Position numbers and translations under genes: made by a program. From Simkaniaceae bacterium (GTDB lineage Bacteria; Chlamydiota; Chlamydiia; Chlamydiales; Simkaniaceae), in assembly GCA_026708385.1 (NCBI GenBank), contig JAPOVA010000010.1, forward strand, positions 5,236 through 69,235: DNA of 64,000 nucleotides, written 5' to 3'. This document shows, in pieces, positions 8,070 through 20,640 of the stretch. The notes beneath the pieces are model-generated. The model searched no databases and had not been told where the DNA came from. It saw only the letters and a list, made by a program, of their open reading frames with translations. The first letter of the stretch is position 1. Every line of letters starts with the position of its first letter.

Positions 8070-9329
8070 TTACTCGTCGGAGCCGGCCTCCTCAATGGAG
8101 ACTCCTTCGAAATAAAACCGTTCGATTACCTCCCCCATACCTTGAGGCAACTCCCGTATCGGATTATTGCTTACGTCCGATTTCATCAGACGGGGCAAGA
8201 ACTGCATTTCCCAAGGCAATCTGCTTAACAGATTATCGTTTAAGTACAGCTCCTCCAAAACAGACAATCCGTACATACCCGGAGGTAACACTTCCAACAG
8301 ATTATGACTTGCGTTCAATCCCCACAACGCACGCAACTTTACCACCCACAAAGGCAACTTTCGTAAACGGTTCCCGCTTACATCCAGAAAAACCAAAGAC
8401 TTTAACGATTTCACCTCCTCGGGCAACTCTTCCAACCCGTTCTTACCCAACAACAAACGCACCAACTTCTCTAACTTTATGATGGTCGAAGGCAATCCCT
8501 TTAACCGGTTCCCGTGCACGTTCAAACTGCCCAAATTCACGAGGTTCCCTATCTCCGGAGGTAACTTTTGCAACCGGTTACTACCCAAATCCAAAGAGCA
8601 CAGGCATATCAGATTCCCGATCGTCGAAGGTAGCGTACACAACAGATTGCCTGCCAGATTCAAATATAACAGATTGATCAGATGTCCTATTCTCGAGGAC
8701 AATTCTCGTATCCCGTTGTTGTGTAAATCCATATGCTCCAAACGATCTAACTCCCACAACTTCTCGGGCAATGAGATCGAAATGTCCGGATGCCCTTTCA
8801 GCGTAAGACGCCGAAGAGCACCCAGCTCCCCTACGAACGAACAGAGGGCGTACGCATTTTCGATGGTCAAATCGTCGTTCCCGGACACGAACGTGCGCAA
8901 CATCACCCATGCTTGCTCACGTGCGGATCGAGCACGTTCCGCATCCCACCCTTCGGGGGGGGATGCGGGGTCGACACATGCACCCTGATTCATCAGAAAC
9001 ACCTCCAACATCCGATGACCCCCGCACCCCGGTATTCCCTCCGTTGCTTCGTCCGCAGTGTACCGGCGCAACGCATGAAAACCGAGTCCGGGCCGAGCCG
9101 TGGCGACTGCATCCGCCAACTCCGTCACAGAGGAATCGGGAGCTTCGCCGGTTCCCCCATCCACCGGACGGATCAAAAAGCTATGCGCCACATCCGACAC
9201 CGAGTCGGCACCCGGTATCGAAAGAACCGCGACCCGCTCCCCGGAGTCGGATCCCGTTTGTTGTTGTCGCACACCCGGCTGCCCGAAGCTCTCTATCGAA
9301 GAGGCACCGTTACCGACACCCTGAGTCAT
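8070..9329 (-). CDS. Leucine-rich repeat protein (eukaryote-like LRR; candidate secreted effector)
   Basis: Ser/Gly/Asp-rich N-terminus, then about ten 23-residue repeats LxxLxLxxNxLxxLPxxIxxLxx spanning about 8115-8813. Examples: LCSLDLGSNRLQKLPPEIGNLVN and LVFLDVSGNRLRKLPLWVVKLRA. Confidence 0.8.
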   Translation of the reverse strand: MTQGVGNGASSIESFGQPGVRQQQTGSDSGERVAVLSIPGADSVSDVAHSFLIRPVDGGTGEAPDSSVTELADAVATARPGLGFHALRRYTADEATEGIPGCGGHRMLEVFLMNQGACVDPASPPEGWDAERARSAREQAWVMLRTFVSGNDDLTIENAYALCSFVGELGALRRLTLKGHPDISISLPEKLWELDRLEHMDLHNNGIRELSSRIGHLINLLYLNLAGNLLCTLPSTIGNLICLCSLDLGSNRLQKLPPEIGNLVNLGSLNVHGNRLKGLPSTIIKLEKLVRLLLGKNGLEELPEEVKSLKSLVFLDVSGNRLRKLPLWVVKLRALWGLNASHNLLEVLPPGMYGLSVLEELYLNDNLLSRLPWEMQFLPRLMKSDVSNNPIRELPQGMGEVIERFYFEGVSIEEAGSDE

Positions 9330-9416
9330 ACCCTCCTCCTTGGATTACGTTAATGATCTGAAACGACAACCTCTTCGACATCATTCACACGACGCCGAAC
9401 CCTCTAACGAGTCCCC

Positions 9417-9806
9417 TTACGGCAACCCCCGGCACCCTCGATCCCGCCGACCATACCGACCGACTTCCCCCCCGAAGTGACTATCCGTCCCGGTCTCCGC
9501 ATCTTGCGGCAAGCTCTCCCGTACGGGCGGGAGGCTACCGACCCTTTGCGTCATTTTGAGACTGACGAGAGACGGACGGCAATCCCCGACCTCCCCAATC
9601 CCACCGACCACATCATCGGCCGACTCCCCCTCGTCGGTCGACTCCCACCCGAAGCGACCATCCGTCCCGGTCTCCGACGACCACCTTTCCGATTGAGAAA
9701 ACAGACCCCCTCCCTCGGGAGCGTTATCCCGAATCGGGAGGACGATCTCCGCATCTTGCCGAAAGACCCCCGGTACGGGCGGGGTGCCACCAACGATTTG
9801 CGTCAT
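9417..9806 (-). pseudogene. Two tandem copies of the 5' module of the adjacent LRR gene (small ORF or gene remnant)
   Basis: ATG at 9806 (MTQIVGGTPPVPG...ETGTDGRFG) and in-frame ATG at 9554 (MTQRVGSLPPVRE...ETGTDSHFG) resemble the LRR gene start MTQGVGNGASS...QTGSDSGER. Nucleotide identity is visible between 9470-9554 and 9650-9806. Confidence 0.35.
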
Positions 9807-9869
9807 ACGGTTCCTCCACGGACGCCTCGGAATGCCGGCAATTGTACTCCTTCGACACTTTTTGCACAA

Positions 9870-10652
9870 TCAATTTGCTTCGGCCGGAAGAGAGGAGATC
9901 TTTTTCAACGCATCGAGAAGATCTTCCTTCGTATCGATACTCTGCGACTCTTCTCGCGTCTCACGCACTTCGACGGTAATCCCATGCTCTAAAAACCGGA
10001 GTTGTTCGAGTTGCTCCGCCTCCGCAAGGGGAGAGGTAGGAAGAGTGGCAATCTTCGCAAGTGTCTCCCTCTTATAGGCATACAGGCCGATATGTTTGTA
10101 ACGAACGGCGTCCCCCCCTTCCGAACCCCTTCGATACGGCACGGGAAAGCGAGAAAAGTAGAGCGCCCGTCTCATACTATCCGTTACCACCTTTACCACG
10201 TTGGGGTCGGCTACTTCCTCTTTGCTCTCAATCCGCTTTTTGAGGGTAACAACCCCGATATCGGCTCCGAGGCTATCTCGTAGCAGATCATCAATCATGC
10301 GGGGGGTAATGAAAGGCTCATCCCCCTGCCAGTTCACCCAAACGTCCCCCTGCAGGAGACCGGAACCCATCACTTCGATCAACCGATCGGTACCGCTCCG
10401 GCACTCCCTCCGAGTCATGACGTATCTGCCGCCGAAACCGTCGATGAGGGTCGCGGTCTTCGGATGATCAATGGCAAAGACAATCTCCGCAAAACCGGAA
10501 CACCGGCCGGCCGCCAGCCATACCCATTCAAGTAGGGGCTTATCACCCAGATAGCTGAGCACCTTGGCAGGAAACCGGAGGGAATGATATCTGGCCGGAA
10601 TGACACAGACCGCTTTTACCCCCGCACTCCCCGTTCCCGTAACACCCTTCAT
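9870..10652 (-). CDS. kdsB: 3-deoxy-manno-octulosonate cytidylyltransferase (CMP-KDO synthetase)
   Basis: VCVIPARYHSLRFPAKVL...GDKPLLEWVW nucleotidyltransferase N-terminus, VNWQGDEPF motif. Start moved to ATG 10652. Confidence 0.85.
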   Translation of the reverse strand: MKGVTGTGSAGVKAVCVIPARYHSLRFPAKVLSYLGDKPLLEWVWLAAGRCSGFAEIVFAIDHPKTATLIDGFGGRYVMTRRECRSGTDRLIEVMGSGLLQGDVWVNWQGDEPFITPRMIDDLLRDSLGADIGVVTLKKRIESKEEVADPNVVKVVTDSMRRALYFSRFPVPYRRGSEGGDAVRYKHIGLYAYKRETLAKIATLPTSPLAEAEQLEQLRFLEHGITVEVRETREESQSIDTKEDLLDALKKISSLPAEAN

Positions 10653-10786
10653 GCCGCCTTCCCGGTAACACGTTCCCGACCTACCCACAACAAACAAATG
10701 GTAGCGAAGATCCTCTTTTGCCGGTACCCTTTCCGTAAAGGGGAGGGGCCGGTACCCCCGGATACCCCCCTTCGTACCGCACACCT

Positions 10787-18500: not shown

Positions 18501-18717
18501 TCGTTAAAGGATAGAAGTAGACCTCATCCGCCATCGACGCGTCGGTTTGCACGGTAGCAATATTGGGATTGATCAAAACGGTCCGAATCCCCTCTTCTTT
18601 GAGAGCTTTGATTGCCTGCGATCCGGAGTAGTCGAACTCCCCCGCCTGACCGATGCGAAGCCCCCCCGAACCGAGGACTGCTACCGTCTTGATCTCCTCC
18701 GACCTACCACCCTTCAA
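15508..18717 (-). CDS. carB: Carbamoyl-phosphate synthase large subunit
   Basis: 1069 aa with two ATP-grasp halves (GSGGLRIGQAGEFDYSG and LGSGPYCIGSSVEFDW) and a C-terminal MGS-like domain. TTG start with GGGGGA upstream. Confidence 0.95.
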   Translation of the reverse strand: MKGGRSEEIKTVAVLGSGGLRIGQAGEFDYSGSQAIKALKEEGIRTVLINPNIATVQTDASMADEVYFYPLTTGVVSRILKKERPDGLLASFGGQTALNLALDLEKEGLFEETGIRILGTSLDAVRTSEDRALFKRALKSIHVKTPESFCVSSVPEALSRAERIGYPIMIRSGFSLGGLGSGKIDSKEELRERVREALLCAPHVLIEEYLAGWKEFEYEVIRDADGNGLTVCNMENLDPMGVHTGESIVVAPSQTLTDFEYHRLRKVSLDIADHFRVIGECNIQYALNPENGEYRVIEMNPRLSRSSALASKATGYPLAFVATKLALGFRLHEVKNVITRTTTAFFEPALDYLVVKIPRWDTKKLSFADRTIGTEMKSVGEVMAIGRSFPEALQKAVQMLNIGKNGPADVLDEEIDDPEEAVRTPTDYRLFALCAFFRGGGTVERAAELSRIDPWFLTHIASVARVADEIRDKPLDVALLRKAKKMGFADKAIGALRNSDEERVREMRLREGIVPFVKQIDTLAGEFDATTNYLYMTYHGTEHDVTSSATPPVIVLGSGPYCIGSSVEFDWCAVNTVRTLRKLGFGSVMINSNPETVSTDYDESDRLYFEVLSLERVRDIADFERAGGIIVSVGGQIANNLASPLSQKGYPIIGTPPECIDRAEDREQFSSLLRDLGVDQPDWRRITNIREGKAFAGAIGYPVLVRPSFVLSGATMAVAFDDQELEQRLSKTLTAFPDAPVVVSQFIRGGKEIEVDGVAQRGEIVVSVVAEHIEHAGVHSGDATIVLPPQRLDLETMRVIKRITQRVVKALQIVGPFNIQFISKNHMVKIIECNLRASRSFPFASKTTGHNFIEIATRILMGEHEPATYDTLDIDYVGVKAPLFSYHRLKGSNPVAHVEMASTGEVACLGRNPYEAFFHAYVASGQEIRGKRIVFSISDDYKAKFFDVISELDKRDWDIYATEGTHDFLSKNGIGSICLYKANEPFSPNVKTIITNRKCDLIVNIPNKTTQSNKTDGYVIRRLAVDNSIPLVTNAQLAMAVLDCLVREEGMPSEVRSWREFLESSCVTV

Positions 18718-19009
18718 GATAGATCCCCCGGCAACAGACGATCACCTCTCCCGACCGTCGGGGTGCGGGAGAACCCCCGAAGAGAGCCACACCGTGAGAA
18801 AGGAACCCCCCTCACACCTAAACCACTCAACGCTTGTCGATTATCTGCAGAAATGCGAGCAAAGACCAAAGCCCGAACCGGGTAGAGGAAGTCAATAAGG
18901 GATGCGACATGCCCGACCATCCTCACCCGTGTCACGTTCATCCCGGTCATCTTCATCGTGAAAAAACCCCGAGACACCCTCCGAGAGCGCCCTGCCTCGC
19001 GATGACAAG

Positions 19010-19145
19010 ACGGCTCCGGCAAACCTCGCCCGCGCCGTCCCCGAACACGGGGGCGACACCTACGATCCGCATACCTACCTCGACGCACCGACATCCTGTC
19101 CGAGTGTACACCGAAACACCGGAAATAGGCAAGATCTTCCCGCCA
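19010..19145 (-). repeat. Degenerate duplicate of the carA leader, RBS, ATG and first ~20 codons, inside the carA-carB spacer
   Basis: Aligns with about 20303-20432. Minus strand reads gtcgaggtaggtATGCGGATCGTA here versus gtcgaggaggagtATGCGGACCACG at carA. Peptide MRIVGVAPVFGDGAGEV versus MRTTDATLVLEDGTEFAG. Confidence 0.7.
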
Positions 19146-19231: not shown

Positions 19232-20362
19232 TTACGGACAGCTCGCCACCCGTCGACGGGGAGAGGGGCGGGCAAGAGCGATTCCCTCCGGTCGCCCGTC
19301 GGGATAGGCCCCCGACAACGCCCGGTAAAACTCTTCGAACAGCCACCACGTATCGACGGGACCCGGGGTCGCCTCCGGATGAAACTGTACGCCACGACAA
19401 AAGGGTCGCCCCTTGTGTGCGAATCCCTCAACCGACCCGTCATGGATATTTCTGAAGGTCACCTCCCACTCATCGGACAAACTCGCCTCCTCGACAACGT
19501 AACCGTGGTTTTGCGAAGTCAAAAAACAGGCGTTATCGGCAATGCGGAGACAGGGCTGATTTTGCCCACGGTGGCCGTACCGGAGCTTCTTCGTCACGGC
19601 CCCGCTCGCCAAAGCCATCAGTTGTGCTCCCAGACAGATACCGAAGAACGGCCTTGTCGGATGTTTTTCCATCGCCCTCCGCAAGAGGGCAACATCTTCC
19701 TGATGTTTGGCGGGATCTCCGGGTCCGTTTGACAGAAGCACGCCGTCACAATCCTCATCCGTGTAGTCGTAACCGCGGGGCACCTTTTTCACCCGCACCG
19801 GGAAGTGGAGAAGGGAGCGTACGATGCTCCGCTTCACTCCGTAATCCACCAAAACGATCAGAGGCCCCTCCTCTCCGTACCACACAACCTCATCACTCTC
19901 ATCACTCACCTTTTCCCGCATCCGGTCCGAGTCGGAAGGAGGGGCCCCCTTCGGCACGATGCTACCGGAAACCACACCCCGGGAACGCAATCGCCTCGTT
20001 ACGGCACGGGTATCAACCCCGGTCATGACGGGAACACGCTCCCGCGACAGCCGGGCAAACAGAGAATCCGTGCTCTTATAGTGAAACGATTCGGAAAAAA
20101 GTTCGTTGACCACGACACCCGCAACTCGTATCCCCCCGGACTCCCACGAATCGGGGGGGGGAACACCGTAATTGCCCACCTGAGGGTAGGTGAAGACCAA
20201 AATCTGCCCCTTATAAGAGGGGTCGGTGAGAGACTCGACATACCCGGTCATCCCCGTCGTAAACACAACCTCCCCACGAACCGCCTTGCTTTGCGACGAC
20301 GGGACGGCCCCGGCAAACTCCGTGCCGTCCTCCAACACAAGGGTAGCATCCGTGGTCCGCAT
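19232..20362 (-). CDS. carA: Carbamoyl-phosphate synthase small (glutaminase) subunit
   Basis: Start at ATG 20362 with GGAGGAG upstream. N-terminus MRTTDATLVLEDGTEFAG, triad region GICLGAQLMA...HGY...FHPE. Confidence 0.9.
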   Translation of the reverse strand: MRTTDATLVLEDGTEFAGAVPSSQSKAVRGEVVFTTGMTGYVESLTDPSYKGQILVFTYPQVGNYGVPPPDSWESGGIRVAGVVVNELFSESFHYKSTDSLFARLSRERVPVMTGVDTRAVTRRLRSRGVVSGSIVPKGAPPSDSDRMREKVSDESDEVVWYGEEGPLIVLVDYGVKRSIVRSLLHFPVRVKKVPRGYDYTDEDCDGVLLSNGPGDPAKHQEDVALLRRAMEKHPTRPFFGICLGAQLMALASGAVTKKLRYGHRGQNQPCLRIADNACFLTSQNHGYVVEEASLSDEWEVTFRNIHDGSVEGFAHKGRPFCRGVQFHPEATPGPVDTWWLFEEFYRALSGAYPDGRPEGIALARPSPRRRVASCP

Positions 20363-20640
20363 ACTCCTCCTCGACACACCGACATCCGGACCCCAGTCTA
20401 CACCGAAACGGAAAAAACAGGCAAGGCCGTCAAAAAAAACCGTACGTCCGAAAACGAATAGGGGGGACGATCGCCGGGCAGTATCGAAACTTCGGGCCGA
20501 TGGCGGCACGAGAGAAAGGGGAAGAAAGGTATAACATGCGCCTCTCCGTGGAGACCACGCGTCGGATAACGTAAAGAACCGTCGGTACCCCCGAAGGATG
20601 ATCTCGTGCACATGTCGGCACCCGGGGGAGGGCAAGGTAC

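Follow-up and report, generated by a model that had tools for sequence, protein, structure and literature searches.

A tandem array of gene starts upstream of a chlamydial leucine-rich repeat gene, probably the scar of two successive duplications

The leucine-rich repeat (LRR) protein families of the chlamydiae, such as NEX1 of Neochlamydia and PEX1 of Protochlamydia, follow a birth-and-death mode of evolution, presenting tandem arrays, pseudogene fragments in intergenic DNA and a conserved pre-LRR region, and functional type III secretion signals have been described in the family members tested (Domman et al. 2014, PMC4209131). Here we analyze an LRR protein gene and the DNA preceding it in a Simkaniaceae bacterium (assembly GCA_026708385.1), the draft genome of which is metagenome-derived and encompasses 1.76 Mb in 48 contigs. 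The window, that is, the whole stretch of 64,000 nt that was analyzed, corresponds to positions 5236-69235 of contig C48 (JAPOVA010000010.1), and positions given without a contig name are those of the window. The minus strand presents, in this order, kdsB, an open reading frame (ORF) of 129 codons, the gene for a 419-residue LRR protein, and sufBCDS. Three ATG codons in this region open with an MTQxVG motif, and they are designated here, in the direction of reading, copies A, B and C. Copies A and B make up the 129-codon ORF, and C is the start of the LRR gene.

The locus resembles the NEX1 and PEX1 families (PMC4209131) in that the LRR gene is one of at least eight paralogs with C-terminal LRRs, a conserved pre-LRR region and variable N-termini. 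It differs from them in that no F-box, BTB or RING domain was detected in the LRR protein, and in that the gene is the only one of its kind at its locus, which lies between kdsB and the suf operon. Furthermore, the fragments found here are 5' stubs of about 50 codons rather than decayed whole genes. The array also shares several features with the scars left by tandem segmental duplication in bacteria. Its copies lie head-to-tail on one strand, next to an intact parent and with the distal copy intact, the redundant copies present indels, a frameshift and mostly non-synonymous change, and one of the indels lies between 6-nt CGGAGA repeats. Unlike the usual scars of this type, it appears to comprise two nested events differing in age and extent, one with the leader and one without it, its decayed copies still form a single open frame of 129 codons with its own Shine-Dalgarno sequence (SD), and the older copy can be detected by start-anchored comparison only. 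On balance, the 540-nt interval that separates kdsB from the LRR gene was probably left by two head-to-tail duplications, one after the other, of the 5' end of the latter gene.

The ATG codons at 9806 (A), 9554 (B) and 9329 (C) open with MTQIVG, MTQRVG and MTQGVG, followed by ETGTD at residues 45-49 in A, ETGTD at residues 20-24 in B and QTGSD at residues 24-28 in C. The spacings between them (252 and 225 nt) are both multiples of three, so that the three starts lie in one frame. In a six-frame translation of the genome, the MTQ.VG pattern was observed three times, against 0.28 expected from composition, and all three instances are these starts. The copies are placed head-to-tail on the minus strand beside the parent LRR gene, and the ORF encompassing A and B contains neither LRRs nor any other Pfam domain.

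Copies A and B are certainly homologous duplicates at the DNA level. Their local alignment reaches a score of 63, as compared to 20.5 +/- 2.9 in dinucleotide shuffles (z=14.5), and none of 500 shuffles attained this score. Ungapped blocks of 64, 34 and 55 nt present 80%, 91% and 71% identity, respectively, and the longest exact match spans 17 nt. The copies differ by a 75-nt segment that is present in A and absent from B, flanked by the CGGAGA repeat, which may have been inserted in A or lost from B by slippage. A search of the genome for the source of this segment returned only 16-nt words without flanking similarity. The gapped alignment of both copies shows that A carries additional insertions of 14 and 7 nt, which include an 18-nt internal tandem repeat, and that B presents one extra base at a run of seven G on the coding strand (9466-9472), which places its tail out of the frame of A. 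When one G is removed from this run, the tail of B reads MVGGIEGAGGCR and aligns with the tail of A, VVGGIGEVGDCR. Over the 30 in-frame codons that A and B share, 14 differences are non-synonymous and 2 are synonymous, yielding a ratio of non-synonymous to synonymous change (dN/dS) of about 2.4 in what is a small sample. Neutral evolution would account for this ratio, whereas purifying selection between the two copies would not.

These results bear on an earlier, sequence-only reading of the same DNA, which had reported the three starts, their opening motifs, the positions of the (E/Q)TG(T/S)D motif and the 252- and 225-nt spacings. All of these were recovered here, and the nucleotide relatedness that it had noted between A and B is borne out by the alignment score against shuffled sequence. 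The insert that it described in A is indeed bounded by a repeat, with a size of 75 nt (counting one CGGAGA copy) in place of the approximately 72 nt given. Likewise, A and B do form one ORF of 129 codons, which ends 87 nt, and not 88, before the ATG of the LRR gene. Its central proposal, a serial head-to-tail duplication of the 5' end, is certain for A and B, and probably extends to C, with the leaders of A and C matching in register.

The evidence linking C to the upstream copies comes from comparisons anchored at the start codon. In an ATG-anchored alignment, B and C agree at 29 of 51 nt. The genome contains 11,054 open frames that begin with ATG and have 100 codons or more, and A alone among them equals or exceeds this match to B. 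C is the next start codon after B and shares its strand and frame. Of the first 20 residues, 8 coincide in the anchored protein comparison, a level reached by 4 of the 11,054 starts. A second, colinear BLASTP segment (VVGGIGEVGD versus VDGGTGEAPD) carries the relationship as far as codon 65 or so of C, and the comparison of A, devoid of its insert, with C yields p=0.0003-0.04 in composition-preserving protein shuffles, depending on gap penalties. The leaders provide further evidence. Those of A and C, aligned ungapped and in register, present 25 identities over 60 positions (p=0.003 against 11,038 gene-start leaders), with a common block at -63 to -41 (T.GTG..AA...TGTCGAAG), and an SD is present before both, that of A (GGAGGA) standing 5 nt ahead of ATG 9806. 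The sequence upstream of B matches neither of these leaders, and no SD precedes B. Taken together, C is very probably a true but old copy, and it is more diverged, as the sequence-only reading had stated.

The following sequence of events would account for these observations. In an older step, a unit extending from just past the kdsB stop codon (-63, with the SD included) to approximately codon 55-65 of the LRR gene would have been duplicated, with the downstream copy (C) remaining as the working gene start. Alternatively, the whole LRR gene may have been duplicated, and its upstream copy later cut to the 5' end. In a younger step, some 157 nt of the upstream stub, roughly from -6 to +151 and lacking both leader and SD, would have been duplicated to generate A and B, the length of this unit being that obtained after subtracting later indels. 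Subsequent changes would comprise the 75-nt indel between the CGGAGA repeats, the 18-nt internal duplication in A and the 1-nt change at the G run. A and B would have ended up in one frame by chance, giving rise to the 129-codon ORF that retains the SD and ATG of A. We infer this order of events and the boundaries of both units. The assignment of the leader to the older unit and not to the younger one is suggested by the in-register match between the leaders of A and C, neither of which resembles the sequence upstream of B. A tandem duplication spanning a gene start would be tolerated because one intact gene remains.

Several lines of evidence weigh against this interpretation. Some of them question whether C belongs to the array at all. 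Free local nucleotide alignments with C are at background, with 619 of 1000 shuffles reaching the B-C score and 404 of 1000 the A-C score, the BLASTP match of C to A and B (12/29 identities, E=0.3) is not significant, and under standard gap penalties C falls outside the top 12 N-termini matching B. Under this alternative, A and B alone would be duplicates, having arisen from an unrelated orphan ORF, and their resemblance to C would be due to chance. We regard this as improbable, given that C provides the best ATG-anchored match to B after A and is the adjacent start, with strand and frame in common, that MTQ.VG occurs nowhere else in the genome, and that the second colinear segment and the in-register leaders also support the relationship. 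The version of the older step that involves the whole gene lacks direct support, since no relic of the LRR 3' end is found in the spacer between B and C, where the best match is not significant (p=0.39). Other lines of evidence hint that the stub may have been, or may be, translated. The in-frame codon usage of the A+B ORF is coding-like, with a score of 0.094, as opposed to -0.12 and -0.17 in the other frames; this score is similar to that of the first 90 codons of the LRR gene (0.089) and sits at the 95th percentile of off-frame controls. The stub ORF also retains an SD and an ATG. In the comparison of A and B with C, over 17-22 codons, the proportion of synonymous differences (pS) is 0.72-0.85, near saturation, and that of non-synonymous differences (pN) is 0.33, a count that is biased by the choice of conserved codons, and the residues kept in A, B and C (T2, Q3, Q17, T, G, D) differ at synonymous sites. 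Because synonymous sites are saturated while pN is low, and codon usage is coding-like, these data hint that the upstream copy was perhaps constrained at the protein level over a long period and translated during much of its past, be it within a full-length paralog or as a small gene.

A partial duplication could have generated a working small gene, encoding an acidic (isoelectric point 4.6) and probably disordered protein of 129 residues, rich in Gly, Arg, Glu, Ser and Val, which would keep the MTQxVG...TGxD pattern and possibly a type III secretion signal. In addition to the SD, the codon usage and the motif residues that A/B and C have kept in common although their synonymous differences are near saturation, this reading is favored by the annotation of A+B as a 129-residue gene in the European Nucleotide Archive (ENA) record of a metagenome scaffold, by the presence in the genome of one FHIPEP (SctV-type) gene, a homolog of the export gate of the type III secretion system, and by the fact that such signals function in tested chlamydial LRR family members (PMC4209131). 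The preponderance of non-synonymous differences between A and B, the frameshift in the tail of B and the 25-codon indel nonetheless argue against it, as does the failure to find either a homolog or a Pfam family for the product, and the openness of the frame is weak evidence because ORFs of more than 80 codons are present in three of the six frames of this G+C-rich stretch. On these grounds, a working small gene appears unlikely, and the idea that the stub is specifically a young, translated small gene is rather doubtful. In its most explicit form, a newborn gene would have received its SD, start and N-terminal putative export motif through partial duplication, these being kept at the amino acid level while synonymous sites turned over, and its C-terminal part from the second stub and the junction. 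This version seems improbable, and if it were true, effector-like genes would arise when nothing more than the "address label" of an existing one is copied. Most likely, the array is a functionless relic that still resembles a gene.

A purposeful device is a very unlikely explanation for the array. The three starts in one frame and the run of seven G in B could be read as signs of silent recombination cassettes for effector genes, of tandem promoters or of an upstream ORF regulating the LRR gene, and the sequence-only reading had proposed that a promoter-proximal signal module might serve as recombination substrate for new effector fusions, or provide decoy or regulatory small ORFs. Efficient homologous recombination requires about 20-30 nt of identity, but the longest exact matches to C span 8-10 nt, and the longest one between A and B spans 17 nt. 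The copies share no long identical tracts with C, each of them carries its own ATG, and the N-termini of the LRR paralogs are unrelated to that of the LRR gene. Furthermore, the module was found in no other LRR gene, and six-frame pattern searches, blastn-short and tblastn returned no additional copies of it in the genome, which disfavors its use as a substrate for effector fusions. Regarding promoters, the unit contains no promoter-like site, the number of terminator-like sites (4 versus 2.1 +/- 1.5) shows no enrichment and B lacks leader and SD. The promoter-proximal secretion-signal module is a putative one. A decoy or regulatory role finds no support in an orphan ORF with a frameshift and an excess of non-synonymous change between its halves. 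With 129 codons, an end 87 nt before the LRR ATG and no Rfam match at the array, the ORF does not have the makeup of a leader peptide or regulatory upstream ORF, and three in-frame stops separate B from C, while the 87-nt gap rules out coupling. Another resemblance that had been pointed out, the MTQ start of a gene at 36352, with the suggestion that it might be fortuitous, is indeed a coincidence, for that gene encodes a hydrophobic membrane protein (MTQEQIFATIGMILLP...) and MTQ opens 5 of the 738 crude ATG genes. An assembly artifact is likewise very unlikely. The genome is a metagenome-derived draft of 48 contigs, but repeats created by assemblers are near-identical, and the copies seen here are 9-29% divergent, with several indels among them. 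In addition, a second public ENA scaffold (68,376 nt, compared to 70,040 nt) is identical over 701 nt, although it may derive from the same reads.

Table 1. Coordinates of the array and of its flanking features in the window.
Feature	Position	Strand	Description
kdsB	10784..9870	minus	Pfam CTP_transf_3, 3.8e-40
Leader of copy A	9807..9869	minus	63-nt spacer directly 3' of the kdsB stop (9870-9872); SD GGAGGA at 9817-9812
Copy A, 5' module	9555..9806	minus	ATG 9806; MTQIVG...ETGTD; reads in frame into copy B
75-nt (25-codon) segment in A, absent from B	9677..9751	minus	direct repeat CGGAGA at 9746-9751 and 9671-9676
Copy B, 5' module	9395..9554	minus	ATG 9554; MTQRVG...ETGTD; without SD; stop TAA 9419-9417
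A+B ORF, 129 codons	9417..9806	minus	orphan
Leader of copy C (live LRR gene)	9330..9392	minus	strong SD GGAGG at 9339-9335
Copy C, first ~65 codons of the LRR gene	9135..9329	minus	MTQGVG...ES..Q...QTGSDS...VDGGTGEAPD; colinear with A and B
LRR protein gene, 419 aa	8070..9329	minus	Pfam LRR_14 1.9e-28, LRR_8 8.5e-17

Homologs of the A+B ORF and of residues 1-185 of the LRR protein were sought among 5.8 billion proteins, in the contigs of GTDB genomes and of JGI metagenomes, and through a HMMER scan of 1.8 billion representatives, and all these sets returned self-matches only. The sole extra HMMER match (P0003) was a tandem acyl-carrier-protein chain matched eight times through its Ala/Pro/Val linkers, and was discarded as spurious. 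An exact look-up of the 129-residue product returned nothing, even though the ENA scaffold encodes it. No orthologous locus was identified in relatives, since the neighbors of kdsB differ in related genera and the comparison set contains no genome of the same genus. As for kdsB itself, the longest ORF (304 residues, with a GTG start, 9870-10784) is probably over-extended. The Met at residue 44 probably marks the actual start, because the orthologs in 25 relatives have about 250 residues and align from residue 55 or so.

The LRR protein comprises a variable N-terminus, a pre-LRR region shared with its paralogs from approximately residue 93, and LRRs from approximately residue 186. Searches with the LRR gene against its own genome identified 18 matching stretches at eight other sites (contigs C26, C18, C6, C19, C20, C33, C29 and C37), with the C26 paralog presenting 43% identity over residues 93-379. 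A Pfam scan of the 419-residue protein returned LRR families only, with no F-box, BTB or RING/U-box domain. The pre-LRR region spans about 60 residues (8775-9050 in the window, with paralogs in C26, C18, C6, C19, C20, C33 and C29), displays the consensus ...ER.RSA..QVW.ML...L.I.NAYALC..VG.L...L.L.GHP and matches no Pfam family. By description only, it recalls the unassigned conserved region of about 50 residues in NEX1 (PMC4209131).

The genome carries a duplication load that is strikingly high for a small intracellular genome. Within a distance of 3 kb, 465 local direct-repeat pairs were identified in the 1.76 Mb, and 54 gene starts have a copy of themselves at most 1.2 kb upstream, compared to about 1 expected. 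Most of these cases correspond to tandem paralog arrays, and the crude ORF calls are too unreliable for a genome-wide count of true 5' stubs. Three further duplications were noted. In the window, the leader and start of carA are duplicated (18988-19133 and 20282-20425, 73% identity over 148 nt, E=2e-13), with the copies 1294 nt apart and the recurrence located in the carA-carB spacer. Also in the window, direct repeats of 382 nt with 92.7% identity lie 2.7 kb apart at 34355-34735 and 37046-37426 (C48:39590-39970 and 42281-42661). On contig C26, positions 18516-18986 contain three tandem units of 146 nt (92-96% identity), a length that is not a multiple of three, and a partial fourth, which together span the start of a crude ORF.

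The array is thus real and probably an ordinary duplication scar, which adds one more example to a type of event already known, and a secretion-signal cassette system at this site is putative. It provides a clean, datable case of short tandem duplications across a gene start surviving in a small intracellular genome. Such duplications create additional start codons as well as open frames, which appear as hypothetical proteins in the output of gene callers, and they advise caution against taking the resulting orphan ORFs for effectors. The locus adds to what is known of birth-and-death evolution in the LRR families of chlamydiae and, if the stub were expressed and secreted, it would illustrate the birth of a gene through a duplicated N-terminal export signal.

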